A stretch of DNA of 64,000 bases from Gammaproteobacteria bacterium (GTDB lineage Bacteria; Pseudomonadota; Gammaproteobacteria; Pseudomonadales; Azotimanducaceae): NCBI GenBank assembly GCA_002689445.1, contig NZGC01000084.1:8723-72722 (forward strand), written 5' to 3'. The notes under the pieces were generated by a model. That model ran no database searches. It was given only the letters and a program-made list of their open reading frames with translations, and was not told the origin of the DNA. This document shows positions 4,458 to 22,561 of the stretch, one piece after another (position 1 is the first letter of the stretch; each line of letters starts with the position of its first letter). Made by a program: the position numbers and the translations under genes.

Positions 4458-5493
4458 GTACCTCAAGAGACTGTGCCATCGCGATACTCCGTTTGGCCAT
4501 CGCCATAAACATATCGTTGCCGCGCTCAGTTTCGCCAACGATCATTGACGCAATGAGCGCCATGATCATTCCTGCCGGCGCATAGTTACGGTAATAGAGA
4601 AACGCTTGATCAAAGCTCAAGGTAATTCCGTAACTGCTCAGCACCTCCAGATACAATCGAAGCAAGGCCCGCTCCTCAGAATCTCGCACCTCTGGCGTTA
4701 GCGAAGTGCCCATAAAGTAACTCGCGTCGTTTAAGGGGCACCCCATAGTTAACGACTGCCAGTCGACAACCGTCAAAGGATAGGGACCACCAAACATCAT
4801 ATTGTCTAAACGGTAGTCCACATGAATTAATACCGGCGGCTGATTCTGATAGACCTTTTGATAATCTGGAAGAATTTCTAGCAGTTGTTCGGTCGCGCGC
4901 ACTTCTGCTTCTGACAATCGCGCTGCATATCTCGATAAATACCCAGGCATTAAGTTTTGGTAAAGCCCGGTAAGCATCTGCGTATCTTCCCGAGCGCTGC
5001 CGCCCCCGAGTAATTCTATCTGAGCAAGTTCACTATCGCCCCATTTTGGTCCCTGCAGATGAGCCAATTGCTCCAGCGCCAGTGCTGCCTGATCAGCAGA
5101 GCAGCCAGCCAATTGATCCCCCTGCACACCCGGACTGAGGTCCTCCATAAGCAGAACAAATTCATGGGATTCAAGATCGATATCAGCATGAAAAATCTCT
5201 GGAGTCTGAATACTCACCTGCGATTGGAGGGTCTGGTAAAAAAACACCTCACGAACATAGTTGCGTTGCATAATACCGGTTTGCTTACTTACCGGATCAA
5301 GCGAGGGAAATTTTCCGACGATCGAATTTGGCCCTCCCTCACCTGAGAGCGCGAAGCGCACGTTTTCTCCGACCTGGCCCGTGCCGATGGATTCCGCCTC
5401 TAGGCTGTTAACTTGGCTTCCGGGATAGTTTTTTTGCAGCACTTGAGTCAGCCAGCTCGCATCAATTTGGCTAGGATTGGAACGAAGATCCAT
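4450..5493 (-). CDS. Phosphotransferase (APH / choline-ecdysteroid kinase-like family)
   Basis: 347 aa with the catalytic loop 'LIHVDYRLDNMMF' (HxDxxxxN). AGGAG lies upstream of ATG 5493. The 3' end overlaps the convergent LLM gene by 8 nt. Confidence 0.8.
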   Translation of the reverse strand: MDLRSNPSQIDASWLTQVLQKNYPGSQVNSLEAESIGTGQVGENVRFALSGEGGPNSIVGKFPSLDPVSKQTGIMQRNYVREVFFYQTLQSQVSIQTPEIFHADIDLESHEFVLLMEDLSPGVQGDQLAGCSADQAALALEQLAHLQGPKWGDSELAQIELLGGGSAREDTQMLTGLYQNLMPGYLSRYAARLSEAEVRATEQLLEILPDYQKVYQNQPPVLIHVDYRLDNMMFGGPYPLTVVDWQSLTMGCPLNDASYFMGTSLTPEVRDSEERALLRLYLEVLSSYGITLSFDQAFLYYRNYAPAGMIMALIASMIVGETERGNDMFMAMAKRSIAMAQSLEVLN

Positions 5494-5553: not shown

Positions 5554-6333
5554 CTAGGACGACAATCGAGCTGCGAGACCGCCTAATGATCTGATCAGCC
5601 TGCGCGGTTGTAGGCGCCCCAATGTCATGGCAGCCTGATTAAGCTGCCCGGGGATACAAACAACCTCGCCTCGCGCCATGGCTGATAGGGCATGGCGCGC
5701 CACCGCTTCGGGCGTATCGATGAAAAAGTCAGGTAAGGCCTCTACAATTTCCGGTACGACACTCTCGGTTTGCGTGACACCTGGGCACAAGGCCGTTACT
5801 GATATCCCTGTCCCTTTCAATTCCTCACTCAGCGCTTCGGTGAGAGATATCAAATACGCTTTGGTCGCCGCGTATTGCGCCATTCTTGGCACTGGCTGAA
5901 AACCTGCTATCGAACACACATTCAATATCCTACCTGACCCTTTAGCTTTCATCGCCGGCAGACAGTGATGCATAAGCCTCACCGGAGCGGTCATGTTCAA
6001 ATACATCAGCGCTTGTTGCCTCGCCACGTCCTCTACAAACCAACCCGTCGCGGCCACGCCAGCGCAATTAACCAAAATATCGATTGATGACGCTTGTGCC
6101 TCCAGCCTTTCAATCAAATGCGAGACCCCTGTTTCTGTCGACAGGTCTGCTGGAATTACCGAGACGGTCACTTTTGCAGACAATCGCTCGGCCAAAGCTT
6201 GCAACCGATCCGCTCGGCGGGCCGTTAACACCAAATCTGACCCCTGGTCAGCCAAGGCGATTGCCAAGGCTTCGCCAATTCCACTGGATGCACCCGTTAC
6301 CAGTGCTCGATTTTGTTTAAACGACAAACTCAC
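5554..6333 (-). CDS. Short-chain dehydrogenase/reductase (SDR)
   Basis: 'TGASSGIGEALA' Rossmann motif and 'YAATKAY' YxxxK catalytic motif. GTG start at 6333 is preceded by GAGGAG. Confidence 0.9.
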   Translation of the reverse strand: MSLSFKQNRALVTGASSGIGEALAIALADQGSDLVLTARRADRLQALAERLSAKVTVSVIPADLSTETGVSHLIERLEAQASSIDILVNCAGVAATGWFVEDVARQQALMYLNMTAPVRLMHHCLPAMKAKGSGRILNVCSIAGFQPVPRMAQYAATKAYLISLTEALSEELKGTGISVTALCPGVTQTESVVPEIVEALPDFFIDTPEAVARHALSAMARGEVVCIPGQLNQAAMTLGRLQPRRLIRSLGGLAARLSS

Positions 6334-6392
6334 ACCCGCTCCTCAGCCCGGATTTAATCGTACCCCGGTTGTTCTTACCATTTAACGCTGGC

Positions 6393-6462
6393 CATCCCAT
6401 CCCATCCCATCTCATCTCATCTTATCTAATCTAATCTAATCTAATCTAATCTAATCTAATCT
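6393..6462. repeat. Graded pentanucleotide microsatellite: (CATCC)3 (CATCT)3 (TATCT)1 (AATCT)7
   Basis: Read directly from the sequence: 14 head-to-tail 5-nt units (70 nt). It lies between the crotonase stop (6482) and the SDR start (6333), about 60 nt upstream of the SDR start codon. Confidence 0.95.
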
Positions 6463-6481
6463 TGTTCAGCACAAACAATTT

Positions 6482-7243
6482 TTACAACAAAGAGAAGTCA
6501 GGCGGTCTCTTCGCTTTGAAGGCCAGCAGTGCCTCTTTATTGGCAGGCCCTCCCGCCAGTTGGTCAAGCGCCGCGTTTTCCAGATCAACGGCGACCTTAA
6601 GCTCATCATTACGGCTACGAGTCATCAACGCTTTGGTCTTCATCAATGACGCTATCGGCAGCTCAGCCAAGACTTCAGCGCGCCGAGTGACTTCTCCCAA
6701 AAGCTCGTCATCAGGATACACTGTATGTATCAAACCATACTCTGAGGCCTTTTCTGCGCTTAACCATTCTGATGACAGCAAAAACCAGCTCGCACGCTGA
6801 TACCCCATTAGTCGCGCGAAGGTGACGGTCGAGGCCGCTTCAGCGGTCAGCCCAAGAGCTGAAAATGGGCAGCGAAACCGCGACGAGGCCGCCGCGAGCG
6901 CGGTGTCCGCGAGACCCAGCAACGTGCAACCAATGCCGACACCCAAGCCGTTCGCCGCGATCAAAAAGGGTTTAGGGAAATCAATCACGGCGTGAAGCAA
7001 GCCCTTGAGGCCATGCCGCGGCGTGGCCTGGTTGCCACCCATCGACTTCAAATCCGCACCGGCACTAAACGCTCTACCGGCACCCGTTAACACCAACACT
7101 TTCGTGGCCTGATCCACCGCCGCTTCGATAAAAGCATCTGCCAGCTCGTCCATCAACTCGGCGCTAAAGGCATTCAGCGAGTCCGGTCGATCCATGATCA
7201 CCCAACGTACCGCCCCTCTCATTTCCTGACGCACAACCTTCAT
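6482..7243 (-). CDS. Enoyl-CoA hydratase/isomerase (crotonase family)
   Basis: 'LTGAGRAFSAGADL' oxyanion-hole motif. The ORF track starts at TTG 7285. ATG 7243 (MKVVRQEMRG...) has GAGGAG 6 nt upstream and is preferred. Confidence 0.9.
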   Translation of the reverse strand: MKVVRQEMRGAVRWVIMDRPDSLNAFSAELMDELADAFIEAAVDQATKVLVLTGAGRAFSAGADLKSMGGNQATPRHGLKGLLHAVIDFPKPFLIAANGLGVGIGCTLLGLADTALAAASSRFRCPFSALGLTAEAASTVTFARLMGYQRASWFLLSSEWLSAEKASEYGLIHTVYPDDELLGEVTRRAEVLAELPIASLMKTKALMTRSRNDELKVAVDLENAALDQLAGGPANKEALLAFKAKRPPDFSLL

Positions 7244-7286
7244 TAAATTCTCCTCTGGCTTTTTTCGATAGGCGGGCTCCGCCAAC

Positions 7287-8435
7287 CTAGGATGATCTCG
7301 CTTTAAAAGGTGAAAATTGCTCTAAATAATCGATTTCTTCGGCGATGTGCCCGCGCTCTTGATCTAAATAGCGCCCCACGGCCTCTCTGAACCCCTCATG
7401 GACAATCCAATGAGCACTATAAGTCTGACTGGGTAAGTATCCTCGAGCAAGCTTATGTTCGCCTTGAGCACCCGCCTCTACTCGATTCAATCCGTGAGTA
7501 ATCGCAAACTCAATTGCTTGGTAATAACAGACTTCAAAGTGTAGAAATGGGTGGTCTTCAATACATCCCCAATTGCGACCAAACAAGCAGTCGCCACCAA
7601 TGAAGTTGATCGCACCTGCGACATAGCGCCCCTCTCGACGACACATCACCAATAAAATGCTATCGGCCATCGTCTCACCGATGAGACTAAAAAATGCACG
7701 ATTGAGGTACGCAGACCCCCACTTTCGGGAGCTGGTATCGGTGTAAAACCGATAGAAGGCATCCCAATGCGACTCTAAAATGTCGCGCCCCGTAAGACAC
7801 TCGATGGTTACGCCACCTGCGACCGACAATTTCCGTTCGCGTTTGATGTTTTTGCGCTTCTTGCTGGACAAATACGATAAGAACTCTTCAAACGAACCAA
7901 AGCCCTCATTTTGCCAGTGGTACTGCTTATGGGTTCGTAATAACCATCCCTCATCACCCCGGCGGCGCCAAGCTGTTTCATCGAGAAAATTGAGGTGCAC
8001 CGAGGAGATATTCAACTCCTCTGCCATTTGCGCGGCGCCTGCCACCAACGCACCTTCGTAACGGGCGTCCGAGGTCAGCACTCTTCGGCCTGTCACCGGG
8101 GTGAAGGGCACAGCCGATAACAGTTTGGGGTAATACCGCCCCCCAGCCCGCTCCAGCGCATCAGCCCAACTGTAGTCGAAGATGTACTCGCCTTGCGAGT
8201 GCCCTTTCACATAGAGTGGCATCAACCCCAGGGGGTTGGCTTGATCATCCTCAAGGACTAAGTGATACGGCATCCAACCCGTTTCGCTTGAAACCGAGCC
8301 ACTCGCCTCTAACGCATTTAAAAACGCGTAGGATAAAAAAGGGTCCCGTGGGACCCCTTCTTGTTCAGCGAATGGGTCCCAAACCTCGGGCCCAATTTCT
8401 GCGATTCCCTGAACCGCTTTGACTTGCCACGTCAT
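7287..8435 (-). CDS. FemAB-like / DUF482 (GNAT-fold) protein of unknown substrate
   Basis: 'DPFLSYAFLNALEASGSV...GW.P.HL', 'GEYIFDYSWADA' and 'YYPKLLSAVPFTPVTG' resemble the COG3146/DUF482 family as I recall it. I moved the start to ATG 8435 (MTWQVKAV...) to remove the overlap with the upstream LLM. Confidence 0.7.
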   Translation of the reverse strand: MTWQVKAVQGIAEIGPEVWDPFAEQEGVPRDPFLSYAFLNALEASGSVSSETGWMPYHLVLEDDQANPLGLMPLYVKGHSQGEYIFDYSWADALERAGGRYYPKLLSAVPFTPVTGRRVLTSDARYEGALVAGAAQMAEELNISSVHLNFLDETAWRRRGDEGWLLRTHKQYHWQNEGFGSFEEFLSYLSSKKRKNIKRERKLSVAGGVTIECLTGRDILESHWDAFYRFYTDTSSRKWGSAYLNRAFFSLIGETMADSILLVMCRREGRYVAGAINFIGGDCLFGRNWGCIEDHPFLHFEVCYYQAIEFAITHGLNRVEAGAQGEHKLARGYLPSQTYSAHWIVHEGFREAVGRYLDQERGHIAEEIDYLEQFSPFKARSS

Positions 8436-8451
8436 ACTCGCAATGCCTGGG

Positions 8452-9486
8452 TTAGAGGATTTCCGACGCGATGAGTTCGAGCGCTTCAGGTTGGCCCGCA
8501 CCAATCAACATAGAACCCACATGGCCGTTGGCTCCTGCGGTTTTCCAGCGCTTTAATTGCTCTTTGATGTGTTCGGCAGGCCCTACCAGGTGACACGCAT
8601 CAACCAACTCATCAGGCACTGCAGCCATGGCCTCATCTTTGCGGCCTGCGAGGTAGTGGTCTTGGATGGCTGCCGCAGCATCCTCAAAACCCAGCGCTTT
8701 CGTGTAATCATTATAAAAATTCTTATCACGAGCGCCCATGCCACCAATATAGAGCGCCATATTACCTTTGATTGGCATACGACAAGCCTCCAGGTCATCT
8801 CCCATGATACAGGTGACAAAGGGAGCAACATCGTAGTCAAGCATTGATCTTCCGGATTTGTTTAAACCTTTCTCAATGTTCGGGCTCAACACCTGGGGTT
8901 TGTCCGGGTCCATCCAAATGGGGAACACACCATCAGCCACTTCAGCGCTGCCAGCCAGACCAGCCGGCGTAATCGAAGCGGTGTATATCGGAATTGAGGT
9001 GTCTGCTTGCAAGATACTTTTCAACGATTTACCCAATCCAGTGCCATCGGCGCCGGCATACGGGAGAGAATAATGAAAACCCTCATGCTCTACAGGGGCT
9101 TCCCGCGCAAAAATCTTCTTCATAATACTGACGTACTCTTTCACCCGCGTGACCGGACGCCCGTAAGCGACGCCATGCCAGCCCTCGACCACTTGCGGCC
9201 CTGAAGCGCCTAAACCCACGATGAATCGGCCATTCGATAGCTGATTTAAGGTCATGGCTGTCATTGCAGTACAGGCCGGTGACCGCGCAGGCATCTGCAT
9301 AATCGCTGTGCCAACTTTGATCTTTGAGGTTTGGGCAAGTATCCAAGCGGCGGGCGTTACCGCATCGGAACCATAAGCCTCAGCAGTCCAGAGAGAGTCA
9401 TACCCTAAACTCTCAGCCATCTTGATTCGATCAATATCGATATTCATCATTTTACCGCTGTACCCGGCCAGTATTCCTAACTTCAT
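8452..9486 (-). CDS. LLM-class (probable F420-dependent) oxidoreductase
   Basis: 344 aa with 'LGYDSLWTAEAYG' and 'NGRFIVGLGASG'. ATG is preceded by AAGGAA. Confidence 0.85.
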   Translation of the reverse strand: MKLGILAGYSGKMMNIDIDRIKMAESLGYDSLWTAEAYGSDAVTPAAWILAQTSKIKVGTAIMQMPARSPACTAMTAMTLNQLSNGRFIVGLGASGPQVVEGWHGVAYGRPVTRVKEYVSIMKKIFAREAPVEHEGFHYSLPYAGADGTGLGKSLKSILQADTSIPIYTASITPAGLAGSAEVADGVFPIWMDPDKPQVLSPNIEKGLNKSGRSMLDYDVAPFVTCIMGDDLEACRMPIKGNMALYIGGMGARDKNFYNDYTKALGFEDAAAAIQDHYLAGRKDEAMAAVPDELVDACHLVGPAEHIKEQLKRWKTAGANGHVGSMLIGAGQPEALELIASEIL

Positions 9487-9640
9487 AATCGTTTCCTTGT
9501 GTGTCTGTTGCGTTTATAGCGGTCTGGTCAATTTAGCGAGGTCACCCTAGCTTACCGTCATGCTCCTCTTATTCGGCAATCCAGCGCTCCATCATCCATT
9601 CACAGCTGATGACTGACTCGCTGATCACTGCCTTCAGATC

Positions 9641-10648
9641 TCAAGATGCGTTCAGTTTTTGCAATAGTGTCCGACTGTGATCCTCATCTCGACCTGCAAA
9701 ATTACCCATCGTCCGGTCAACCAAACTACCGTACCGCGATTTAAACAGGTCGACCGCAGCCTCCGGCTCGCCCACCACCGCGAATTCTGAAAGGATATCG
9801 TCGGTAATCAAGTCGGCCATATCGTCCCAACGACCTTGCTTACTCAGACCATTGAGTTCAGGCTGCAAATCGCCCCAGCCATGAATACCCAGCACAGGTG
9901 CGTAGGCGGGAGTCGAGCCATAAAAAGCGATCTGCTTTTTGACCGCCTGTTTATTCGTTTCGAACGCTTCCTCGGTGTTACCTGTTACCACAAACCCAGG
10001 ATAGCTCACTTCAAAGTCAGACCGATCACGGCCGGCTTTCGCTAACCCCTTCTCCACAGCGGGTAGCGTTACTTCTCTCAGATACTTCTCTGTTGTGAAA
10101 GCATGAATGATCACACCATCAGCGACTTCCCCAGCAACCTCAGTCATGAGGGGACCCACCGCCGCCAAAAATACTTTGGGTGCGCCGTACTGGGTATCCA
10201 AGGGTGTAAACATCGGTGTCATGAGGGAGTGGGTATAAAATTCACCGTCAAACTGCAGAGGCTGACCTTCATGCCAACAAGCCCAGATTGCTCGCATCGC
10301 CGAAATAAACTCTCGCATTCGCGCAGCCGGCTTGGACCAAGGCATGCTAAACCGCTTGGTGATATGAGGCCGAATTTGGGAGCCTAAACCCAAGATAAAC
10401 CGACCTTTAGAAAAACTGTTGAGGTCATGGCCAATGTTCGCCAAATTCATGGGCGTTCGCGAGAAAGCTACTGCAATCGATGTCGTTAATTCAATCGCCT
10501 GAGTTTCCTGCGCGGCCAGCAGCAACGGAAAAAAAGGATCATGAGAGGTCTCAGCAGTTACCGCGCCGTTATAACCGAGGCTTTCTAACTTTGCCCCCTG
10601 CCGACCGGCCTCGCCCAAATCTCCCATCAAACCGCCATCTATCTTCAT
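9641..10648 (-). CDS. LLM-class (probable F420-dependent) oxidoreductase
   Basis: 335 aa with 'KGRFILGLGSQ'. ATG is preceded by TAGGAG. It starts 9 nt after the stop of the upstream LLM. Confidence 0.85.
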   Translation of the reverse strand: MKIDGGLMGDLGEAGRQGAKLESLGYNGAVTAETSHDPFFPLLLAAQETQAIELTTSIAVAFSRTPMNLANIGHDLNSFSKGRFILGLGSQIRPHITKRFSMPWSKPAARMREFISAMRAIWACWHEGQPLQFDGEFYTHSLMTPMFTPLDTQYGAPKVFLAAVGPLMTEVAGEVADGVIIHAFTTEKYLREVTLPAVEKGLAKAGRDRSDFEVSYPGFVVTGNTEEAFETNKQAVKKQIAFYGSTPAYAPVLGIHGWGDLQPELNGLSKQGRWDDMADLITDDILSEFAVVGEPEAAVDLFKSRYGSLVDRTMGNFAGRDEDHSRTLLQKLNAS

Positions 10649-10657
10649 AGTCGTCTC

Positions 10658-11653
10658 CTAGAACGTAAACTGATTACCCGTAAAAGCCTTGTAAGTCGCT
10701 TGAGCATGTTTGCCCGATACACAAGAGATGATGTGCGTCGTAATACCGTCTTCAGCGTAGGCGCGAATCCGATCTTGGCATTCTTCTTGACTGCCGATGA
10801 TGGCAATGTCATCTACCAACTGATCATCCAGCGCTGATGTTGTCTTCTGACGATCTTTAGCAGCCCAGCCCTCACGAATCGCCTCAGCCACCTCTTCGTA
10901 GCCTGACCAGGCTAGAAAAGCATTATATACAGGGGTTGCGTAATAAGGCGCGAAGGCCGCTCTAATCATATCTCTGGCGCTTTCCTTATCATCCGTTACG
11001 ATGACTTGATGACGACAGACGACCTCGACATCAGCCAATGCTTTGCCAGCTCGTTCCGCACCTGCCTTGATGTGGGTCATCATTCTTGGCAAGGCATCCT
11101 TCGGGAACAAATTTAAGATGACGCCATCGCTATACTCAGCTGCTGTTTCAAGCATCTTGCTACGCAACGCTGCCATGTAGACTGGTTGAGCACCATCGGG
11201 TAACGGCAATTGACGGTAACCTCGACTGGTCACCGTATCGCCTTGAAAATCGGACTTATCGCCTCGAAGCATACTTTGGATCAGTTCTACCGTCTCTTTC
11301 ACCCGAGTCAGAGGCTTTTCAAAAGTCAAACCGTGCCAGTTTTCCATCATCGTTTGGCTTGACGAACCCAACCCTAAAATAAATCGGCCTTCAGATAACT
11401 GATGTAAAACATGGGCGGTCGACGCTAAGACTGCGGGAGTCCTTGAAAATACCGGGATAATCGCGGTTCCGATACGGCATCGCTGCGTATTGAGTGCGAC
11501 CGCTGCAGCCGTTGTCAGCGCATCCACGCCAGAACTGTCAGCAAACCACAAATCATCATAGCCCTCAGCTTCCGCCCACTTAGCCATTTCTATGGTGCCC
11601 TCAACCCCTCGTGGGTCGGGCAGCGTCAATGCAGTTCTTTGAGGTATCGCCAT
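10658..11653 (-). CDS. LLM-class (probable F420-dependent) oxidoreductase
   Basis: 331 aa with 'EGYDDLWFADS' and 'EGRFILGLGSS'. ATG is preceded by CAGGAG. Confidence 0.85.
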   Translation of the reverse strand: MAIPQRTALTLPDPRGVEGTIEMAKWAEAEGYDDLWFADSSGVDALTTAAAVALNTQRCRIGTAIIPVFSRTPAVLASTAHVLHQLSEGRFILGLGSSSQTMMENWHGLTFEKPLTRVKETVELIQSMLRGDKSDFQGDTVTSRGYRQLPLPDGAQPVYMAALRSKMLETAAEYSDGVILNLFPKDALPRMMTHIKAGAERAGKALADVEVVCRHQVIVTDDKESARDMIRAAFAPYYATPVYNAFLAWSGYEEVAEAIREGWAAKDRQKTTSALDDQLVDDIAIIGSQEECQDRIRAYAEDGITTHIISCVSGKHAQATYKAFTGNQFTF

Positions 11654-11781
11654 TATTTTTCTCCTGTGCCTTTGGGTCTGGGCGCTTCGCCCAAAGCCCT
11701 AGATTCCATCAGTGATTTTCCCGTTACTGAACACGGCTTATCGTGGACGATTGGCCTGCTCAGCCCCCTAAATGGATCATT

Positions 11782-11855
11782 TGTTTACATCCGTCCCTTT
11801 GAGACCCGTCCGTTTCGTATCGTCTGTTTTGTATCCGTCTGTTTTGTATCCGTCC
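11782..11855. repeat. Array of about five 13-15-nt tandem repeats; the last two are identical (TGTTTTGTATCCGTC x2)
   Basis: Perfect units at 11825-11839 and 11840-11854. Degenerate units lie upstream (gtttcgtatcgtc, ctttgagacccgtcc, tgtttacatccgtcc). On the minus strand the unit reads GACGGATACAAAACA. Confidence 0.85.
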
Positions 11856-11874
11856 GCGCGATATCACTTATTTA

Positions 11875-11902
11875 CTGCAGTCCGCTGGGCGGGCAGTTTT
11901 TT
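11875..11902 (+). terminator. Rho-independent terminator-like hairpin on the plus strand
   Basis: ctgc-agt-ccgc-tgg-gcgg-gcag followed by TTTTTT gives a 4+4 bp GC stem with a 3-nt bulge. No annotated plus-strand gene lies upstream, so this implies an unannotated plus-strand transcript or is fortuitous. Confidence 0.3.
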
Positions 11903-12347
11903 GGACAACAGCCTTTTGTCGATTTTCTTTTTCACTCCGTTCTCGGCCAATCCCTCATCCGATCCATTCCTTCGCAAAATCTCGTTGTCCCGCTTCGATC
12001 CCTCTCAACCACTGCTCCTGATCAAGCGCGTCTCATTCGAATCCGAGCACTCACCTCGGGGACGGCCTAGCCTAACACGGTTAATCTAACCCTGCCTGAT
12101 CCTTTCAGACTTCGCTTCAAAGCAGCACTGACAGCCTCTGTACTGCTCCGCTCTCAGTGTGCTCGCTGCCAGATCGCCTTTGTCGGCTGCGAGTCCGCCG
12201 ATACCCCGGTTTTTTCGAGTGCTTTTGGACTTTCTCAAACCTTTCGCCGTTTGCCCCGCTTACGGTTCTGGCAAGTGGCAATGTCATTCGAGACGATTGC
12301 CCCAATTACCCTCCCTCAAAATATCGCCAAGGCCTGCAAAGATTGGT

Positions 12348-14843
12348 CTAAATAATCTCGGCACTCGATATTTGATCTTCAGGTACCAAGCCCGGTCTCA
12401 CCAAGGCTTCTTTCTTCTGCCTGGTTCGCTCATAACGCTTTGCAGAGGTGTAGATTGGTTCTTTGAGTATCGCGGCACCCATCGATTTTTGATGCTGAAC
12501 TTCGGTAACTTCGCTGTAATCGGTTGCTCGCTGCCTTGGTGTTCTACCCGCCGCCCGAATGAGGGCCTCCATGGCTTCGGGAGAAGTTTCTTGGCCATGC
12601 GCGGCACCCGCAGCCCGGGTGATCGTCTCATTCATCAAGGTTCCACCCAGGTCATTGACGCCGGCGTTGAGGCAAGCCTTGACCCCCTCGTGCCCAAGTT
12701 TCGTCCACGAGGCCTGAATGTTCTTGAATACTGGGTTCAACGCTAGCCGCGAAATCGCATGGATTAAAACGGCCTCACGAAACGTTGGTCCCTTGCGCGC
12801 TTGCCCCTTGAGATACATCGGCGCTTCCATATGAATAAAAGGCAAAATCACGAATTCGGTAAAGCCGCCGGTTTTCTCTTGTAACGCGCGTATTCTTAGC
12901 AAGTGTCGGGCAACGTGTTCATAACGTTCGATATGCCCATACATGATGGTTGCGGTGGTGTTAAAACCAACCCCGTGGGCTGCCTCCATCACCTCAAGCC
13001 ATTGACTGGTGTTGATTTTATCCGGGCACAGTGATGCCCTAACCTCATCGTCAAGAATCTCAGCCGCCGTGCCCGGTAACGTTCCTAATCCCGCTTCCTT
13101 CAACGCAGAGAGGTATTCCGGTAAGGACTGCCCTAGCGTCTTTGCACCCTGCCAAACCTCAAGCGGCGAAAACGCATGTATATGCATTTCGGGCACGACT
13201 TGCTTGATGGTGTGACAAATATCAAGGTAGGTTTGGCCGGTATACTCAGGGTGGATGCCACCCTGCAGACACACCTCGGACGCACCCCGATCAAAGGCCT
13301 CTCGTGTGCGACGCATAATTTCTTCATGCGATAAGTCGTAGGGGCGGCCGCGCAAGTTCTCGCTCATTTTTCCTTTGGAAAACGCACAAAATTGACACTT
13401 AAAATAACAAACATTCGTGTAGTTGATATTTCGATTAACGCAATAAGTCACTTCATCACCACACACATCACGACGAATCGCATCGGCGGCTTGACAGACG
13501 TGAGTCACTTCATCACCTCTGGCCTGAAACAAGCGCACAATCTCAGCTTCAGTTAATGCCAGGCCCTCGCTGGCTTTACCTAAAATGCGCGATAGTTCGT
13601 TACTGGCAGGCCTCTTAGGTATTTGAGTAACCCTCGCTAAATCTGCCTCTGGAGGTTCCGGTGTTTCACCCGCAGCCCAGGATTCACCTCGAACAAATCC
13701 CTCGCCATCAACGGTACCCAAGACCAAAGGCTGCAACTCGGGATCAACCCAACGGTCTAACTGCTGAACGTGGGATGGATAGAGCGCCAAACGCTCGACC
13801 AGCACCTTACCTTCTCGAGCCGTCTCTTCGGCTAGATTCTGCAAGTGCGGCCAAGGTGCTTCGGGATTGACGAAGTCCGGGGTGACAGGCGAGACACCGC
13901 CCCAATCGTTAATGCCTGCATCGATCATCCGATGGAAGACCCCAGGACTCAAATTTGGCGGGACTTGAAGATTCATCTCGCTTCCAAACATCAAACGAGC
14001 TTGGGCAATGGTCCATAACAGTTCATTTAAATCCGGCTCCGGCGCATCTTTCATCAAAGTGCCGGGTTTCGCTCTGAAATTCTGGATGATCAACTCTTGA
14101 ATATGACCATAAGGCTCATTGGCCGCCCGCAGCGCCAATAGCGACTCGATGCGCTCGCGTCGGGTCTCACCGATCCCAATCAAAATACCCGAGGTAAATG
14201 GCACGCCGGCTTCACCCGCGAGCCTTAAGGTCTCAAGCCGCCGAGAAGGCACCTTATCGGGTGACCCATAATGCGGCATACCCTTTTCGGTCAATCGGTC
14301 CGAGGCGGACTCAAGCATAATGCCCATCGAGAGTGAAACTTTACGGAGCGACTCAAACTCAGACGCCGTCATAAGGCCTGGATTCAAATGGGGAAAGAGG
14401 CCGGTTTCGTTCAGCACTAGCTCTGCCATATCATGGAGATAACTTAACGTCGAATCTTGACCTAATTCCTTCAACCCATCTCTTGCCGCTTTGTATCGCT
14501 CTTCGGGTTTATCGCCCAAGGTAAACAGAGCTTCTTTACAGCCCGCTTTAGCACCTTCAGCGGCAATTTTGAGCACTTCGTCCGGGGTCAAATAAGGTGC
14601 TTTTACTTTTCTGGGTACCTGCGCAAAAGTGCAGTAGTGGCACACATCTCTGCATAGGTGCGTTAAGGGTATAAAGACTTTTCTGGAATACGAGATGGTA
14701 TTGGGATGGCTGAGATCCCGAATTCCACCGGCGACCGACAGCAACGTATTGGTGTCGGAAAATTCTGACAATGCCAACGCATCATGATCAGCAAGCCCTG
14801 CTCCGGCTGCAGCTTTCTCTAAAATCTCTGTTACTGATGCCAT
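12348..14843 (-). CDS. fbiC: Bifunctional FO synthase (7,8-didemethyl-8-hydroxy-5-deazariboflavin synthase, CofG+CofH fusion)
   Basis: 831 aa with two radical-SAM CxxxCxxC clusters (CRDVCHYC near the N-terminus, CYFKCQFC mid-protein). Size and two-domain layout match FbiC. ATG 14843 directly follows the cofC TAA. Confidence 0.93.
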   Translation of the reverse strand: MASVTEILEKAAAGAGLADHDALALSEFSDTNTLLSVAGGIRDLSHPNTISYSRKVFIPLTHLCRDVCHYCTFAQVPRKVKAPYLTPDEVLKIAAEGAKAGCKEALFTLGDKPEERYKAARDGLKELGQDSTLSYLHDMAELVLNETGLFPHLNPGLMTASEFESLRKVSLSMGIMLESASDRLTEKGMPHYGSPDKVPSRRLETLRLAGEAGVPFTSGILIGIGETRRERIESLLALRAANEPYGHIQELIIQNFRAKPGTLMKDAPEPDLNELLWTIAQARLMFGSEMNLQVPPNLSPGVFHRMIDAGINDWGGVSPVTPDFVNPEAPWPHLQNLAEETAREGKVLVERLALYPSHVQQLDRWVDPELQPLVLGTVDGEGFVRGESWAAGETPEPPEADLARVTQIPKRPASNELSRILGKASEGLALTEAEIVRLFQARGDEVTHVCQAADAIRRDVCGDEVTYCVNRNINYTNVCYFKCQFCAFSKGKMSENLRGRPYDLSHEEIMRRTREAFDRGASEVCLQGGIHPEYTGQTYLDICHTIKQVVPEMHIHAFSPLEVWQGAKTLGQSLPEYLSALKEAGLGTLPGTAAEILDDEVRASLCPDKINTSQWLEVMEAAHGVGFNTTATIMYGHIERYEHVARHLLRIRALQEKTGGFTEFVILPFIHMEAPMYLKGQARKGPTFREAVLIHAISRLALNPVFKNIQASWTKLGHEGVKACLNAGVNDLGGTLMNETITRAAGAAHGQETSPEAMEALIRAAGRTPRQRATDYSEVTEVQHQKSMGAAILKEPIYTSAKRYERTRQKKEALVRPGLVPEDQISSAEII

Positions 14844-15530
14844 TTAAATCTCTCCTGTGATCCTCTGCAGACGATCAATCACATCTATGGATATTGCATA
14901 ACGATAAGTATGGGACCCAGCCCCTTGAAATGCCAGTCGCCCCATCAAAGCCTTCAGATCGCTTGGGGTATCAATATCAAGGCCAAGCCCTGGCAACTTG
15001 AGTACGGTCGGATTGACACCCACGTTGTGTGCCGCTGCGAGGTGCTTCCTAAAGCTGTCAACCCCAAATTGGAAGGGAATCAAGTTGGGAGGAGCTGCGA
15101 GCAAGCAATTGGTCCCCCCCAGGTCGGCAGCCGGCACCATCGATAAGCCAGCACCTCCCGAGAAAGTGCCGTCCAAAACCACCTCGAGTTCCTCAGCGGT
15201 CACCAAGGGAACATCCCCTGGCAAGAACAACAACCGCTCGGTACCCGCCTCCGCCAGGGTCGATGCGGCATGCGTAACCGCAGCGACTAACCCTGGCTGT
15301 TCAGGTTCAGCCAAGGTACCCAGCTGATAGTGAGCAGCCATCTCGATCGCCGCTGCGTCCTTCGTCACGAGTAAACACTGATCAACGAGTGGACAGGCCT
15401 CAATGGCGATTAACACGTCTTCTAACATCGCATAGCTGAGCGCCTTACGCTCGGCGTCGGTTAACAGCGCTGACAATCGCTGTTTAGCATTGTCAAAAGA
15501 CTTAACGGGAATCACCGCGCAAGTTTTCAC
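14844..15530 (-). CDS. cofC: 2-phospho-L-lactate (or PEP/3-PG) guanylyltransferase
   Basis: 228 aa with 'AVIPVKSFDNAKQRLS...ML.DVL' and 'FLPGDVPLV', the CofC/FbiD pattern. The GTG start overlaps the cofD stop (GTGA). Confidence 0.85.
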   Translation of the reverse strand: MKTCAVIPVKSFDNAKQRLSALLTDAERKALSYAMLEDVLIAIEACPLVDQCLLVTKDAAAIEMAAHYQLGTLAEPEQPGLVAAVTHAASTLAEAGTERLLFLPGDVPLVTAEELEVVLDGTFSGGAGLSMVPAADLGGTNCLLAAPPNLIPFQFGVDSFRKHLAAAHNVGVNPTVLKLPGLGLDIDTPSDLKALMGRLAFQGAGSHTYRYAISIDVIDRLQRITGEI

Positions 15531-16501
15531 TGTGCGAGCGACTCACTGAATGCGAGCACGTCTTTGGCCAAGGCTTGCTTGTCTTCGGCCGATTTCATCA
15601 CCGTCCCTGTAATCAAGGGTTCCATACCCAGCGCCGCAACCTCGGCCGCTGCATTTGCATCAATTTCGTCAAGAACGAAACCATCAACCAAGCCAGGGTA
15701 TCGCTGGTGGTAAAACTCAGCCACCGCCAGCGCGGTGCTTGGCAGCGCCAATTCTTGCATCATTTTAGCCGCGGGGCCCTTCAACGCCTCACCACCGACT
15801 ATCGGAGAAACCAGTACCACCGGGCAATTCATCGCTTTCAATTTAAGCCAGCTATCGGCCAGCTCTAAAATCGGGGCGACGCTGACAAAGGGGTTGGACG
15901 GACAAACCACAATTGAGGACAATGCATCGGCGTCCAGCAATGCTTCGAATTCCGGAGCCAACTTAGCTTCTGCAATGCCCTTAAAACGCACCCCGGATAT
16001 TTTTGGCTCACATCGATCACGAACAAAGTAGTGTTGGAACGCTAATATATCGCCGCTTTGACACTCTATTTCAGTCGCGACGCTATCATCAGTCATCGGG
16101 AAGACCGCCACCTCAACGCCAAGCTGACGCATCAATTTCGCGGTGACTGCGCTTAGACTTTCGCCTTCCGCGAGCATCCGGGTCCTCATCACATGGGTCG
16201 CTAGGTCACGATCACCCAGTCCAAACCAGGTTTCCCCACCTAACCGTTTCATGGCATTCAAAAACTGCCAAGTTTCGCCCTCTTGTCCCCAACCTACGGT
16301 TGCGTTCGCAAGACCTGAGAGGGTATACATCAGCGTATCCATATCTGGACAAATTCTTAGACCTAAATGGTCAAAATCATCGCCTGTATTAACGACCACC
16401 GTCAGCGCTTCGGAGGGCAAAACATCCCGCAATCCTACCGCCAGCTTTGCGCCCCCGACACCGCCGGATAGGGCTAAAACATTTGGCGACGTTAACGACA
16501 T
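15527..16501 (-). CDS. cofD: LPPG:FO 2-phospho-L-lactate transferase
   Basis: 324 aa with N-terminal 'LSGGVGGAKL' and overall CofD/FbiA-like sequence. ATG start. Confidence 0.9.
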   Translation of the reverse strand: MSLTSPNVLALSGGVGGAKLAVGLRDVLPSEALTVVVNTGDDFDHLGLRICPDMDTLMYTLSGLANATVGWGQEGETWQFLNAMKRLGGETWFGLGDRDLATHVMRTRMLAEGESLSAVTAKLMRQLGVEVAVFPMTDDSVATEIECQSGDILAFQHYFVRDRCEPKISGVRFKGIAEAKLAPEFEALLDADALSSIVVCPSNPFVSVAPILELADSWLKLKAMNCPVVLVSPIVGGEALKGPAAKMMQELALPSTALAVAEFYHQRYPGLVDGFVLDEIDANAAAEVAALGMEPLITGTVMKSAEDKQALAKDVLAFSESLAQ

Positions 16502-16607
16502 AGGGCTGATTCCTTTGAAACGAAGTGGATAAAAAGTTTAGGTGGCCCAAATCCTTTGCCACGAATTACAGTGTGCCCTCATCGTATCATCCTGACGCAT
16601 CAACAGC

Positions 16608-17387
16608 TTACCTGAACATGTCCATCGCTTTGGGTCGAAGCAGCGGCTTGACGCCTTGCAAATCTGCTGACTCTGGGGCTTTCGGAGCATAACCACGCAC
16701 CCTCACTACCGGCGCTTTTTCTGTGGTCTGTCCCATGACCAATGATGCACCTGCTGCGAGTTCATCAGCCGCGGCCACTTGGGTCACGATCAATTCGCGA
16801 CCGTAAATATCGTGTCCGCCGACATAGTCCTCGAGACTGGTCATGCCTGCGACACCGATGGCGAGCCCCACGGTACCCATTCTCCAGGCTCTACCGATCG
16901 AATCGTTGATGATAACAGCAACATCGATACCACACCGATCCGCAATGGTTTGTCGCAATCGTTGTGCCGATGCATCGGGATCAACCGGCAACAGTAAACA
17001 TAGGTCGTCTCCCTCCACACCCGCTTGATAAATATTGGATTGATCAATCCCTGCATTTGCAGCGACAAAACCCAATCGATGCTCAACAATGAGGACGCCA
17101 GGCCGCTTGCGAACCACCTCATTGGATTCATCAAGGATGACCTGGACTTTCCTCGGATCCTTGTCGACCTCCTCTCCTAAGCGCATGGCAGCCTCACTGG
17201 GCTCTACATCCGCGAGATTGACGTAACGGTTTTCCGCTTTCGAAACAATCTTTTGCGCGAGCACCAGCACGTCTCCATCCCTTAAATCTTCTTCCATCGA
17301 TTCAAGACCGGCCAATATCAAGTCGATCAGGTCATCGCCCGGCTCGACCATCGGGATTTTGTCGACCGCAACCAGAGATAACTGCAT
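16608..17387 (-). CDS. cofE: F420-0:gamma-glutamyl ligase (single-domain CofE)
   Basis: 'LVLAQKIVSKAE', 'GFVAANAGID.SN' and 'IINDS.GRAWR.G' are CofE hallmarks. I moved the start to ATG 17387 (MQLSLVAVDK...), which overlaps the npdG TGA (TGATG). The protein is about 259 aa and has no FbiB-type C-terminal nitroreductase domain. Confidence 0.9.
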   Translation of the reverse strand: MQLSLVAVDKIPMVEPGDDLIDLILAGLESMEEDLRDGDVLVLAQKIVSKAENRYVNLADVEPSEAAMRLGEEVDKDPRKVQVILDESNEVVRKRPGVLIVEHRLGFVAANAGIDQSNIYQAGVEGDDLCLLLPVDPDASAQRLRQTIADRCGIDVAVIINDSIGRAWRMGTVGLAIGVAGMTSLEDYVGGHDIYGRELIVTQVAAADELAAGASLVMGQTTEKAPVVRVRGYAPKAPESADLQGVKPLLRPKAMDMFR

Positions 17388-18058
17388 CAATCTGCTGCCG
17401 ATTCGCCCGTAATCACCAACCCAGCACCATTGATTTTGTGGTGTCGATTGATCGTGATCAAAATTGAGGTTAAGGCTTCTGCAGCGGCAGCATTGGCGAT
17501 TGGGCCGGCATGCCAACCTTTCAAACCCAGCGCTTCGATCAGCTCAATGACAGTGTCTCGGGCTGCTCGCTTATTGCCAGTGACCAACACATCACAAGCA
17601 ATGGCATGATCCTCTTGTAAATGCATCGCACCAACATTCTGAAAAGCTGACACCACAAAGACTTCTTCCCCTAAATGGTTCTGTGCTTGTTGACCCGCGG
17701 ACCCCGCTTCAGGCAACTGGACCGTCCCTACTTTCGGCGGCATAAGAGGAACGGTCACGTCGATTAACACTTTTCCGGCCAACGCATGTTTTACCGAATC
17801 GAGCGTGCTTAATTGATGGGCGAAAGGGACCGTCAGCACCACCAGGTCGGCTTGCTCTGCTGCGCTTGCGTTATCAAGACCCGTGACGTTCAAGTCTGCA
17901 AACTCGGCAAGTAGCGCGGCAGCTGCCTCCTGGCCCTTCTCAAGGGTTCGGCTGCCAATTAAAATGGCATAGCCCGCTCGCGACCACTGTCTCGCTAAGC
18001 CGCCGCCCAAGTCACCGGTACCGCCCAAGATTGCGATGGTTTTAATACTTTCACTCAT
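17387..18058 (-). CDS. npdG: NADPH-dependent F420 reductase
   Basis: 223 aa with 'IAILGGTGDLGGGLA' Rossmann motif. Size and context match NpdG/Fno. GGAGAGG lies upstream of the ATG. Confidence 0.85.
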   Translation of the reverse strand: MSESIKTIAILGGTGDLGGGLARQWSRAGYAILIGSRTLEKGQEAAAALLAEFADLNVTGLDNASAAEQADLVVLTVPFAHQLSTLDSVKHALAGKVLIDVTVPLMPPKVGTVQLPEAGSAGQQAQNHLGEEVFVVSAFQNVGAMHLQEDHAIACDVLVTGNKRAARDTVIELIEALGLKGWHAGPIANAAAAEALTSILITINRHHKINGAGLVITGESAAD

Positions 18059-18378
18059 AGATTCCTCTCCAATAATCTTTCACCCGCTTGCGCTTGGCCA
18101 CAGCCAAACAGCTGGCCTTGTTGCGGCGCATGACTCTGACACCCGCTTCTTCTTACGAAACCGCATCGCGTTTATGTCACCTGTAGCCGGCCAAGCATTA
18201 TGAAGTAGTTTTTCTACCAATTCACCTGATTCAGCATCCTCAGGTTTTGATGGCACGCTTTGGCCTTGCTTACAGTCTGCTTTTTGATCCAGCCCAGCGC
18301 TTTCAACCTGCCTTCGCCTTCAGAGCGTGCGACCTTTTCTCGGCCGAATCTTGCCCTGCACCGGCGCATTGCCCGGCG

Positions 18379-18969
18379 CTAACGCAGACCGTGAATTAAG
18401 GTGATGCATTGCGAGGCGTAGAGCATCGTTTTACCCAACGAGATGGGTGAGAGACCTTTTCTGATCAACCCTTTAACCGTATTTTTAGGCATCACTAATT
18501 GGTCTGTTAGGGCAAATACGCCTGCCTCAATCGGCGCAAGGTGCGAGGCAGGTTGGCCTTTGGGATCGAGCAAATAACCGGGTCTATCCTTTGTCAGCTC
18601 ATCCAGTAATCGCTCAAAACTCTTACCTGAAACCCCAATACCATTCCCAGCTTCCCGGGATTCATCTTTTGCAAGCGCTCTGCCCTTTGAAAGCGCGTCA
18701 CTACAACTCTTCAGCAGCGCCGCCTCAGTTAGCCCACCCAGGTTTCCCAAAAGGCCTCCATCAAAGGTCAAAACCCGACTGAAGTCTGCTGATTTCTCGA
18801 GGACCAAATGTAGCCGGGTATCATCCCGATGACCGTTGGCAACAAACAGCGCATTGACGATCATGGCGGGTATAAACTCTACGTGAGCACCGAGCCCAAG
18901 TGCCGCCAAGAACTGCTGCGGCTCAACCGGCGTTTTGCGACACCGAACCACAAATTCAATTGCCGCCAT
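18379..18969 (-). CDS. Hypothetical protein resembling the TrmY/DUF358 SPOUT methyltransferase family
   Basis: 196 aa. The pattern 'A.F..NGHR.D..L.LVL....R.L.F.G..L..L...E.A...' followed by C-terminal 'F.L.D......K.L.....ISLG...L.ASQCI.LIH' recalls archaeal tRNA pseudouridine-54 N1-methyltransferase. This assignment is from memory only. Confidence 0.4.
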   Translation of the reverse strand: MAAIEFVVRCRKTPVEPQQFLAALGLGAHVEFIPAMIVNALFVANGHRDDTRLHLVLEKSADFSRVLTFDGGLLGNLGGLTEAALLKSCSDALSKGRALAKDESREAGNGIGVSGKSFERLLDELTKDRPGYLLDPKGQPASHLAPIEAGVFALTDQLVMPKNTVKGLIRKGLSPISLGKTMLYASQCITLIHGLR

Positions 18970-19197
18970 TCATCTGCTCCCTGTCTACCCCGTTTGGGTT
19001 GCAATGGTCTTCGTTTCGAAAACCCATTTTCACGACAAAGTATAACTGATTCCCCTTGACCGACCCGCTCTCAACTTGATGTCGCAGTCGTCAACCTAGC
19101 AGGCTTGCATTTTCTCGCTTTGATCGTCTGACATTTTGCTTGACCCCGACCACCCAAGGATGTCTATGATCAAGCAACTCTTGATTGTCTGATTACT

Positions 19198-20424
19198 ATG
19201 GCTCAATCCGCACGATTCCAGCTTAGTTGGTATAACTTCAGCAACAGTCTGTGGATGATCAGTTTCAGTATTCAACAACTCCTGGTCACTTGGATTTTGG
19301 TCGGGGTTCTTGACCAATCACCTGAGGCTGTCGGTCTCGCCCAACTCATTATTGGCGTACCCGCGCTGCTTTTCATGCTCTGGGGCGGTGTGATCGGTGA
19401 TCGTGTCGATGGACGAACCCTGCTATTTCAGTCGCATCTCTTGAGCGCCATTCCGCCGCTTATTCTGGCGCTTGCTGTTTATGTCGACCACCTAGGATTC
19501 TGGGTACTCATCGCCACCGCATTGATTGCCAATCTTCTTAACAGCGCTTCTAATCCAGCTCGCAATACCATTTTAAATAGCGTTGCGGGCAACCGGCTGC
19601 AGTATGCGATTAGTCTCTCAACAGGGATCGGTTCACTCGCCACTATGCTTGGCACAAGGATCGCCGGAGAAATCGACAACTTCGGACTGATTCAGGTTTT
19701 ACTTCTCCAGAGCGCATGCTTTGGCTTAGGTGGGCTTTTTGTTCTAGGTCTTAAGAAAAACCCCGCGGTATCGACGCCTTCTGACCCGCCTGAGATCAAA
19801 CCCAGCATGATTGAGGTGATCCAAGAGGGTCTCAATTACACCTGGCGATTCAAATTAGCCAGAGACCTTGTCGGCTTAAATTTCTTTTCGAGTTTTTTTA
19901 ATGCCGGGGCATGGATGATTGCTATCCCTTTTATCATTAACCGCATCTATGCAGGCGATGCCCTACTTTTGGCCAACATGACGGTCGTCTTCTATTTTGG
20001 GTCGCTGGTTGCAAACTTCGGTCTACTGCGATTTATGCCTCTACTGCGCCCGGGCCGTTTATACCTGATTATGCAAGTCAGTAGGATTTTAGTGCTCTTG
20101 CTTATCTGGGTGCAGCCCACCCTGACCTGGCTCTGGGTCGCTGCCGCCTATTGGGGATTCAACATGGGAGTGACCACCACCATGTCTCGAGTCATGATTC
20201 AAGAAATTGCAGAGCCCGAGTTCCGTGCCCGGCTCATGTCTGTTTTTACGTTGGGGTTGATGAGCGCAACCCCCATGGGCAGCCTGGTCTTAGGATTGGT
20301 CATTGGTCAATTCGGGGAATTGAATGCGTTGATTCCTGGCATGCTCGCCTCAGCAGTCATCTTTTGGTACGGCTTGAAGCACAGTAGCATCTGGCAATAC
20401 CAAAGCCCCCAACCCACCGCTTAA
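19198..20424 (+). CDS. MFS transporter
   Basis: 408 aa and about 12 hydrophobic segments. The loop 2-3 motif 'GGVIGDRVDGR' is MFS-like. Confidence 0.8.
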   Translation: MAQSARFQLSWYNFSNSLWMISFSIQQLLVTWILVGVLDQSPEAVGLAQLIIGVPALLFMLWGGVIGDRVDGRTLLFQSHLLSAIPPLILALAVYVDHLGFWVLIATALIANLLNSASNPARNTILNSVAGNRLQYAISLSTGIGSLATMLGTRIAGEIDNFGLIQVLLLQSACFGLGGLFVLGLKKNPAVSTPSDPPEIKPSMIEVIQEGLNYTWRFKLARDLVGLNFFSSFFNAGAWMIAIPFIINRIYAGDALLLANMTVVFYFGSLVANFGLLRFMPLLRPGRLYLIMQVSRILVLLLIWVQPTLTWLWVAAAYWGFNMGVTTTMSRVMIQEIAEPEFRARLMSVFTLGLMSATPMGSLVLGLVIGQFGELNALIPGMLASAVIFWYGLKHSSIWQYQSPQPTA

Positions 20425-21655: not shown

Positions 21656-22561
21656 TCACTCGTAGATTTTTAGAAATTCCTCGAACGCAACCATCTGCCC
21701 ACCATTTGCAGACGAAGGCACAATAATGGGCGTTTTAATGCCCGCATCAAACCAAGCTTCAACCCCTTCACGAACGGCGCGAGCAGACCCAAAAAGTGTC
21801 GTATCCGCAAGCCAACGATCCGTCAGATAATGGGGTACTCGGTCACGATCACCCGCAGCAAGAGCAGACTCAACGCCTTCCATCTCCTCGACATATCCGG
21901 CCGCTTTCCAATAGTTACGGTAGTTGGGCAGCATGGCATAAGAGGTCAGCGTTCGACGATTAACGGCTTTGGCGGCCTCTAGATCGTCAGAGATACAGGT
22001 TGGAATCATATTACCGATAAAAAATTCCGGACTTGAACGCTTAGCCTCGCTCACCTCAGCAAGGGATGTCGACATATAAGACCTTGCGCCGTTGGCAAAG
22101 ACCATACCATCCCCAATTTCCTCAGCGAGCCGAATCATTTTTTGTCTGAGGGTAGCCAGTATAATTGGGGGCATCTCACCCACCCGAGGCACAGATTTCA
22201 ATTGCTCGACAAAAGATCGAATATCCGTGAGGGGCTTACCCGCCTCGATACCTCTCGACTTGAGAGCCGGCGCATGACTTACGCCAATACCAAAGCGAAA
22301 GCGCCCATTTGAAATTTCATGCAAAAACCCAACGGTACTCGCAAAGTCGACAATCTGTCTGAAGTAAATCGGCATAATGCTTGTGCCGATTTCAATTTCA
22401 TGGGTTACGTGGGCCAAGGACTGGCACAGCGCCAGAGAGTCTCCAAGGCTCGGGCCATAAATCCCTGGGTACCCTCGTCGCTCAATTTCTTGCGCCAATT
22501 CTAAGGTTGCCTGACGGCGTCCTGGGACTGCGGCCAAACTCAATGCCGGTAATTGGGCCAT
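21656..22561 (-). CDS. LLM-class flavin/F420-dependent oxidoreductase
   Basis: 301 aa with 'NGRFRFGIGVS'. ATG start. Confidence 0.8.
   Translation of the reverse strand: MAQLPALSLAAVPGRRQATLELAQEIERRGYPGIYGPSLGDSLALCQSLAHVTHEIEIGTSIMPIYFRQIVDFASTVGFLHEISNGRFRFGIGVSHAPALKSRGIEAGKPLTDIRSFVEQLKSVPRVGEMPPIILATLRQKMIRLAEEIGDGMVFANGARSYMSTSLAEVSEAKRSSPEFFIGNMIPTCISDDLEAAKAVNRRTLTSYAMLPNYRNYWKAAGYVEEMEGVESALAAGDRDRVPHYLTDRWLADTTLFGSARAVREGVEAWFDAGIKTPIIVPSSANGGQMVAFEEFLKIYE

Follow-up and report, generated by a model that had tools for sequence, protein, structure and literature searches.

The stretch of DNA analysed here (hereafter the window) comprises 64,000 nucleotides (nt) of contig NZGC01000084.1, from a marine gammaproteobacterial assembly, and carries on its minus strand five adjacent genes for the synthesis and reduction of the deazaflavin cofactor F420, namely fno (npdG), cofE, cofD, cofC and fbiC (Table 1). 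Each of the five encoded proteins was assigned by NCBIfam equivalog models with curated cut-offs in bits, and the E-values of these family matches range from 1e-45 down to 0, which is far past chance. The operon is predicted to be an ordinary, intact F420 island, representing a pathway that is already known.

Table 1. Features of the F420 locus in the window, with family matches (score and, in brackets, curated cut-off)
Feature	Product or description	Position (nt)	Strand	Family matches
fno (npdG)	F420 reductase dependent on NADPH, 223 aa; opens the tightly spaced operon	17387-18058	-	TIGR01915, 190 bits (150); PF03807
cofE	single-domain F420-0:gamma-glutamyl ligase, 259 aa	16608-17387	-	TIGR01916, 269 bits (181); PF01996
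cofD	phospholactyl/enolpyruvyl transferase joining the side chain to FO, 324 aa	15527-16501	-	TIGR01819, 283 bits (257)
cofC	guanylyltransferase, 228 aa, GTG start	14844-15530	-	TIGR03552, 154 bits (105)
fbiC	fused CofG+CofH FO synthase, 831 aa	12348-14843	-	NF006687, 1135 bits (1018); halves TIGR03550 (residues 51-374) and TIGR03551 (residues 431-779)
spacer fbiC-LLM_A	694 nt	11654-12347	-	
LLM_A	predicted F420-dependent luciferase-like oxidoreductase (Rv3093c type)	10658-11653	-	TIGR03841, 241 bits (214)
LLM_B	predicted F420-dependent luciferase-like oxidoreductase (MSMEG_2256 type)	9641-10648	-	TIGR03617, 469 bits (278)
LLM_C	predicted F420-dependent luciferase-like oxidoreductase (Rv3520c type)	8452-9486	-	TIGR03559, 370 bits (335)
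FemAB_like	FemAB-like protein; closes the conserved block	7287-8435	-	PF04339, 511 bits
TrmY-like	TrmY-like SPOUT protein, 320 nt upstream of fno	18379-18969	-	PF04013, 98 bits; NF002560, 118 bits (183, not reached)

An earlier reading of the letters and open reading frames (ORFs) alone, here called the sequence-only reading, had placed all five genes on the minus strand and had seen two CxxxCxxC clusters in FbiC; coordinates, motifs and equivalog scores agree with this. The two radical S-adenosylmethionine motifs are CRDVCHYC (residues 64-71, nt 14654-14631) and CYFKCQFC (residues 479-486, nt 13409-13386). The three start/stop junctions that it had described could also be verified directly from the letters. 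At the npdG/cofE junction (GATTGATGCAG) one A is common to the TGA and the ATG (TGATG), at the cofD/cofC junction (CAGTGAAAA) the GTG of cofC lies on the cofD stop in a 4-nt GTGA overlap, and at the cofC/fbiC junction (TAAATGGCA) the fbiC ATG abuts the cofC TAA with zero gap. The genes cofE and cofD are 106 nt apart and are therefore not coupled. Promoter and terminator scans of positions 6000-19400 gave counts inside the shuffle expectation.

CofE is 259 aa long, and because Pfam recognizes PF01996 alone in it (residues 10-232), it is a single-domain ligase. The length of about 259 aa and the lack of an FbiB-type C-terminal domain that had been read from the letters thus hold, and the median length of the homologs is the same. 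A longer cofE ORF of 302 aa with a TTG start was discarded as an artefact of ORF listing, as both the homolog median and the gene calls on metagenome contigs give 259 aa. The best PDB match of the protein is the archaeal CofE of Archaeoglobus fulgidus (E=3.7e-47), and all its other PDB matches are archaeal CofEs as well.

Related loci were collected by a scan of one genome per species, in which 398 species-level genomes contained a relative of CofC; the best 80 of these were inspected, and their genes were called and clustered. The exact species of the window is absent from this set of representative genomes. The same operon with overlapping junctions was present in the 80 genomes, and an overlap of -4 or -1 nt was the commonest state at fno/cofE, cofD/cofC and cofC/fbiC, these distances being approximate because gene starts in the relatives were inferred by alignment. 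The best 80 are almost all metagenome-assembled genomes (MAGs) of marine Pseudomonadales/Gammaproteobacteria, including Ca. Azotimanducaceae (HTCC2089), OM182 and KI89A, and the nearest one is Pseudomonadales bacterium BS301-5m-G65 (91% identity for FbiC, 96% for Fno and 71% for CofC). Two of the contigs bear unexpected labels, 'Candidatus Fonsibacter ubiquis' (L055, 3.3 kb) and 'Flavobacterium sp.' (L065, 27 kb), while carrying the same gammaproteobacterial-type operon; the labels are probably binning errors in MAGs.

The degree of conservation differs among the genes. Across 49 related genomes (loci among L011-L090), median identity to the window is 76-81% for Fno, FbiC and the downstream luciferase-like proteins LLM_A and LLM_C, with Fno at 81%, and falls to 49% for CofC and 55% for CofD, a far more divergent pair. 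These two are the enzymes that select the precursor of the side chain. Among conspecific metagenome contigs, 23 synonymous and 2 non-synonymous distinct single-nucleotide alleles were counted in fno, cofE, cofC and fbiC; cofD was left out of the count because the contigs had been chosen for identical CofD. By this count, the core operon is under purifying selection.

If the proteins act as their families predict, FbiC would make the deazaflavin FO, CofC would activate a C3 phospho-acid with GTP, CofD would move the activated phospho-acid onto FO, and the single-domain CofE would add the gamma-glutamyl tail. Fno would then load the cofactor with hydride from NADPH, and the downstream luciferase-like (LLM) enzymes would be its predicted users. 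What has to be weighed is which C3 phospho-acid enters the pathway: 2-phospho-L-lactate (2-PL), phosphoenolpyruvate (PEP) or 3-phosphoglycerate (3-PG).

The mycobacterial FbiABCD system proceeds from PEP through dehydro-F420-0 to F420. The window shares with it a fused FbiC and several LLM subfamilies, but unlike mycobacteria it lacks the C-terminal nitroreductase domain of FbiB, and a homolog of that domain is likewise absent nearby. The query used to establish this was the C-terminal domain of Mycobacterium tuberculosis FbiB, whose sequence was confirmed to be identical to the chain in PDB 4XOM/4XOO/4XOQ. When the window and 90 loci (1.58 Mb) were translated in all six frames, phmmer gave no match to it at E<=10; this negative result covers the window and some 10 kb on either side of the operon in each of the 80 related genomes. 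The Pfam tables of the window, which take in essentially all ORFs of at least 150 aa, contain no PF00881 nitroreductase. Neither of the forms in which the PEP-route reductase is known, fused to CofE (as FbiB) or as a stand-alone FbiE, was thus found at the locus or in its surroundings, and the earlier statement that no dehydro-F420-0 reductase is in view is correct for the 64-kb window.

The novelty which that statement implied does not follow, since a single-domain CofE without an adjacent reductase has already been documented in archaea and in Mycetohabitans (PMC6450877, PMC7253369). Fusion of CofE to the reductase has been described as an actinobacterial event (PMC8498797), a stand-alone FbiE occurs in Thermomicrobium with homologs in other predicted producers (PMC8498797), and an unidentified reductase, 'CofX', has been postulated for archaea and some bacteria (Bashiri 2019, PMC6450877). 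CofB, the 2-PL kinase expected to supply this substrate, still awaits identification in all organisms (PMC6450877, PMC7253369). The missing reductase step is a standing puzzle of the field and not peculiar to the locus described here.

One further gene was considered as a reductase. In 12 of the relatives (L021, L027, L036, L041, L049, L051, L056, L058, L069, L075, L078 and L089) a gene for a 157-aa PNPOx-like protein lies 2-90 nt after fbiC and before LLM_A. It was rejected, as homologs 62-68% identical to it stand in non-F420 contexts in other organisms in three look-ups out of three, and as a member of the F420-PPOX family it was likewise rejected, scoring 30 bits against a family cut-off of 79. 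The window lacks the gene, a tblastn search giving nothing better than E=0.5.

The substrate pocket of CofC can be compared with enzymes of established preference, and the sequence-only reading had proposed this comparison while considering the side-chain chemistry unpredictable. A Ser or Thr at position S162 of the Mycetohabitans enzyme (Mrhiz-CofC) is diagnostic for the use of 3-PG, with contributions from H145, M91 and C95, and altering S162 abolished its preference for 3-PG (Hasan et al. 2022, PMC8764529). The CofC of the window was aligned to the structure chains 7P97, 6BWG and 2I5E. Among solved structures, the one nearest to it in sequence is that of the 3-PG enzyme of Mycetohabitans itself (7P97, E=8e-25, 35% identity), ahead of M. 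tuberculosis FbiD (30%) and Methanosarcina mazei CofC (27% only). However, it differs from the Mycetohabitans enzyme at all four positions linked to 3-PG, M91 being replaced by L81, C95 by V85, H145 by G138 and S162 by G156, so that in the structure-chain alignment none of the residues H145, M91 and C95 nor a Ser/Thr at the S162 position is present; the four replacements are invariant in 24 relatives. Of them, L81 and G156 correspond to L92 and G163 of M. tuberculosis FbiD.

The catalytic and ligand-binding residues of CofC (K10, K16, D106, D185, D187, S159 and T140) are kept. Among these, the metal-binding D106, D185 and D187 and the carboxylate-binding S159 are invariant and align to D116, D188, D190 and S166 of M. 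tuberculosis FbiD. The pocket, judged by the four positions linked to 3-PG, is of the 2-PL/PEP type, which makes 3PG-F420 an unlikely product. The earlier view was therefore too pessimistic, the side-chain chemistry being predictable in part. The choice between 2-PL and PEP cannot be made from sequence, because CofC assays do not separate the two substrates and CofD acts as the filter (PMC8764529).

The same residues bear on the proposal that the locus makes a non-classical cofactor, either 3PG-F420 as in Mycetohabitans or an unreduced dehydro-F420 that serves as the working form. The relationship of CofC to 7P97 and the lack of a visible reductase in the window and in the related loci would fit such a product, and 3PG-F420 has been detected in an environment whose producers are unidentified (PMC8764529). 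The clade-wide replacement of all four residues, in particular of the Ser whose alteration cost Mycetohabitans CofC its 3-PG preference, speaks against the first form, and the lower stability of dehydro-F420 relative to F420 (PMC8498797) against the second; we consider a non-classical cofactor quite improbable.

The resemblance of the locus to Mycetohabitans (Paraburkholderia) rhizoxinica/sp. B3 is nevertheless real, as both have a proteobacterial host, a single-domain CofE and no reductase. They differ, beyond the CofC pocket, in the use of the cofactor: Mycetohabitans has no known F420-dependent enzymes (PMC8498797), whereas the window encodes at least five LLM proteins above the cut-offs of F420-dependent LLM families.

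On balance, we favour the reading that the locus is a functional, long-resident island that both makes and uses F420, and that it would reach the classical cofactor by the direct route from 2-PL. In this archaeal-type route, 2-PL would be converted to LPPG (lactyl-2-diphospho-5'-guanosine) and then to F420-0, a dehydro-F420-0 reductase would not be needed, and the product would be the classical lactyl-linked F420 and not 3PG-F420. The route is preferred to a PEP route with an unlinked reductase because the local absence of a reductase is clade-wide in a system that is otherwise tightly clustered, and because CofE and CofD are archaeal-like. The CofD of the window scores higher against the LPPG-using CofD of Methanosarcina mazei (194 bits) than against FbiA of Mycobacterium smegmatis (168 bits), which is specific for enolpyruvyl-2-diphospho-5'-guanosine. 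The archaeal CofC/CofD/CofE systems, which start from 2-PL, also have a single-domain CofE; unlike the window, they have an FO synthase that is split into CofG and CofH, and their host is not a bacterium.

Several points weigh against this reading. The gap between the two CofD scores is small and is no measure of specificity, and no residues that set the specificity of CofD/FbiA were found to be defined in the literature. The pathway is not simply archaeal, because FbiC is of the fused bacterial type. Outside the locus, 2-PL is not known as a bacterial metabolite and an enzyme that forms it is known nowhere (for CofB, see PMC6450877 and PMC7253369), and the assays of CofC cannot tell 2-PL from PEP as the substrate in the cell (PMC8764529). 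The search for a reductase took in 64 kb of this genome and roughly 20 kb at each related locus, and one may be encoded elsewhere. Finally, the presence of F420 in this clade is deduced from genes, and no biochemical F420 data on the clade were found in the literature.

The supply of 2-PL is the subject of one side observation. A gene for a small-molecule kinase of the APH/EcKL family (4450-5493, minus strand) is convergent, with an 8-nt overlap, with an LLM gene at 3312-4457. Only nine close relatives keep it in this position beside the block, and its exact protein has no record in the assembly collection. A role of this kinase in making 2-PL would be pure speculation.

A start from PEP is the principal alternative. 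CofC and CofD would then make dehydro-F420-0, to be reduced by an unlinked nitroreductase of the FbiE type or by a non-homologous 'CofX'. PEP, unlike 2-PL, is an abundant compound (PMC7253369), the pocket of CofC suits PEP as well as 2-PL, and the CofC/CofD of Ca. Entotheonella shifted toward PEP when the cognate pair was assayed together. The stand-alone FbiE of Thermomicrobium and its homologs offer a precedent for an unlinked reductase, and the part of the genome in view is a fraction of the whole. Set against this, the phmmer search described above gave no FbiB C-terminal homolog in the 64-kb window or in the roughly 10 kb flanking the operon in any of the 80 genomes, and an unlinked step would be the exception in a clade where the other F420 genes are tightly clustered. 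We regard this route as possible but doubtful.

A variant of the PEP start would have dehydro-F420-0 reduced by an enzyme of the island that is not a nitroreductase, or dehydro-F420 used unreduced. The most obvious candidate would be LLM_A, which follows fbiC in about 60 of the 80 genomes and is some 80% identical across the order. We hold this variant to be improbable; if true, it would give 'CofX' a name or raise the number of natural forms of F420 to four.

The preferred reading takes the island to be long resident. The host is an uncultured marine member of the Pseudomonadales and stands near Ca. Azotimanducaceae (HTCC2089), OM182 and KI89A. The gammaproteobacterial host deduced from the flanking genes was right: the window does contain class-II IlvC, HtpX and SelO together with a DsbA-like gene, and the nearest genomes are MAGs of marine Pseudomonadales. 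The companion suggestion, that the locus is probably horizontally derived, would hold only in the deep sense in which the literature proposes a transfer from Actinobacteria for Gram-negative F420 producers generally. A recent island, received from an actinobacterial or archaeal donor by a gammaproteobacterium otherwise free of F420, would draw on the same proposal and on the mycobacterial gene names of the LLM subfamilies. But the composition of the five-gene island equals that of the rest of the window, with a GC content of 0.533 against 0.519 +/- 0.018 and a third-position GC content (GC3) of 0.549 against 0.536 +/- 0.030 for the other 34 genes, no mobile-element genes flank the locus in the window annotation, and the same block, with partly conserved flanks, recurs in the 80 inspected of the 398 genomes. 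Because GC and GC3 lie within one standard deviation and the syntenic distribution is wide, recent transfer is discounted as very improbable, and on this evidence the F420 operon is an old, vertically inherited trait of the order.

The unit does not end with the biosynthetic genes. The description of the locus as complete, given in the sequence-only reading, covers the biosynthetic core, whereas the unit runs on into three LLM genes and a FemAB-like gene. The conserved same-strand block defined from the related loci consists of the TrmY-like gene, fno, cofE, cofD, cofC, fbiC, LLM_A, an optional LLM_B, LLM_C and FemAB_like, and the genes beyond it differ among the 80 loci. Of the genes that follow fbiC, LLM_A is conserved best (about 60 of 80 loci, 80% median identity), LLM_C is present in 54 of 80 loci (80% median identity), and LLM_B is an optional member found in 28. 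The nearest PDB relatives of LLM_A and LLM_C are F420-dependent Mer enzymes. The FemAB_like gene, which is without a known link to F420, begins 16 nt after LLM_C in the window and occurs in 63 of 80 loci at a median gap of 59 nt; no PDB relative of its protein was found.

At the other end of the block, 56 of the 80 loci have the TrmY-like gene upstream of fno. The best PDB match of its protein is the uncharacterised VC_A1059 of Vibrio cholerae, and with its best solved relative from that species the gene was rejected as an F420-specific partner, V. cholerae not being known to have an F420 pathway. It counts as a conserved neighbour that may or may not belong to the functional unit. In 27 relatives (e.g. 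L062, 5694-6869), a serine hydrolase gene of the beta-lactamase family (391 aa, PF00144) stands on the same strand directly upstream of the TrmY-like gene; this hydrolase is not present in the window.

The spacer between fbiC and LLM_A is species-specific and unusually long. Its counterparts in relatives mostly measure 10-150 nt and show no similarity to it. It contains a 15-nt tandem repeat, GACGGATACRAAACA (minus strand), at about 11795-11855, whose copy number varies between conspecific metagenome contigs; apart from the repeat, the spacer is nearly identical within the species. No Rfam match was obtained in its 694 nt. A hidden element in the spacer was rejected, there being no Rfam match, no PNPOx-like remnant and no conservation in relatives.

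The window contains six luciferase-like genes in 64 kb, five of which lie above the cut-offs of F420-dependent NCBIfam subfamilies. In addition to the three of the block, the genes at 3312-4457 and 57193-58119 (both on the plus strand) pass such cut-offs, and the one at 21656-22561 (minus strand) is below all of them; the additional subfamily scores recorded in the window are 390 bits for TIGR03857 (cut-off 218) and 256 bits for TIGR03619 (cut-off 167). The LLM genes sit among genes for acyl-CoA ligase, acyl-CoA dehydrogenase, enoyl-CoA hydratase, short-chain dehydrogenase/reductase (SDR), thiolase and TauD. Lipid-like or other acyl-CoA substrates are suggested for the LLM enzymes because acyl-CoA ligase, dehydrogenase, hydratase and SDR genes surround them, and the setting suggests a genome region in which acyl compounds undergo F420-linked oxidation or reduction.

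In alphaproteobacterial F420 producers, too, FbiC is fused and CofE consists of a single domain. The Alphaproteobacteria Paracoccus and Oligotropha make F420 (PMC8498797), and their CofCs prefer 2-PL in vitro (PMC8764529). Paracoccus denitrificans and Oligotropha carboxidovorans (Ney et al. 2017, via PMC8498797 and PMC8764529) resemble the organism of the window in being Gram-negative hosts, with Fno as the F420-reducing enzyme and a CofC of the 2-PL/PEP type, and there, as here, either 2-PL or PEP may be used in the cell. Unlike them, the clade of the window consists of marine Gammaproteobacteria (OM182, KI89A and HTCC2089) in which F420 is predicted from genes, and its operon is joined to a conserved LLM set and a FemAB-like gene.

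Discussions of F420 mostly concern methanogens, actinobacteria and soil bacteria, and a 2021 review does not mention the Gammaproteobacteria (PMC8498797). No paper linking F420 to OM182, KI89A or HTCC2089 was found. The name of the NCBIfam family F420_CPS_4043 presumably points to Colwellia psychrerythraea, in which case F420 genes have already been noticed in a marine gammaproteobacterium. The lineage may be under-reported for F420, while the pathway itself is not new.

The exact proteins of the window recur in many ocean metagenomes. The exact CofD was found in 97 blocks of a public assembly collection, the six contigs shown being from ENA and JGI metagenome assemblies, and another protein of the window was found on a TARA ocean scaffold. 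Because the clade offers many natural cases in which a single-domain CofE stands without a nearby reductase, it would be a reasonable test bed for deciding between 2-PL and PEP. Given that the operon is present in the 80 genomes inspected, adjoins LLM and acyl-CoA genes and encodes proteins that recur in ocean metagenomes, common marine heterotrophs may regularly use F420-dependent redox chemistry in turning over carbon, a role similar to that proposed for the FMN/F420-type LLM expansions of SAR202 (PMC5395668).

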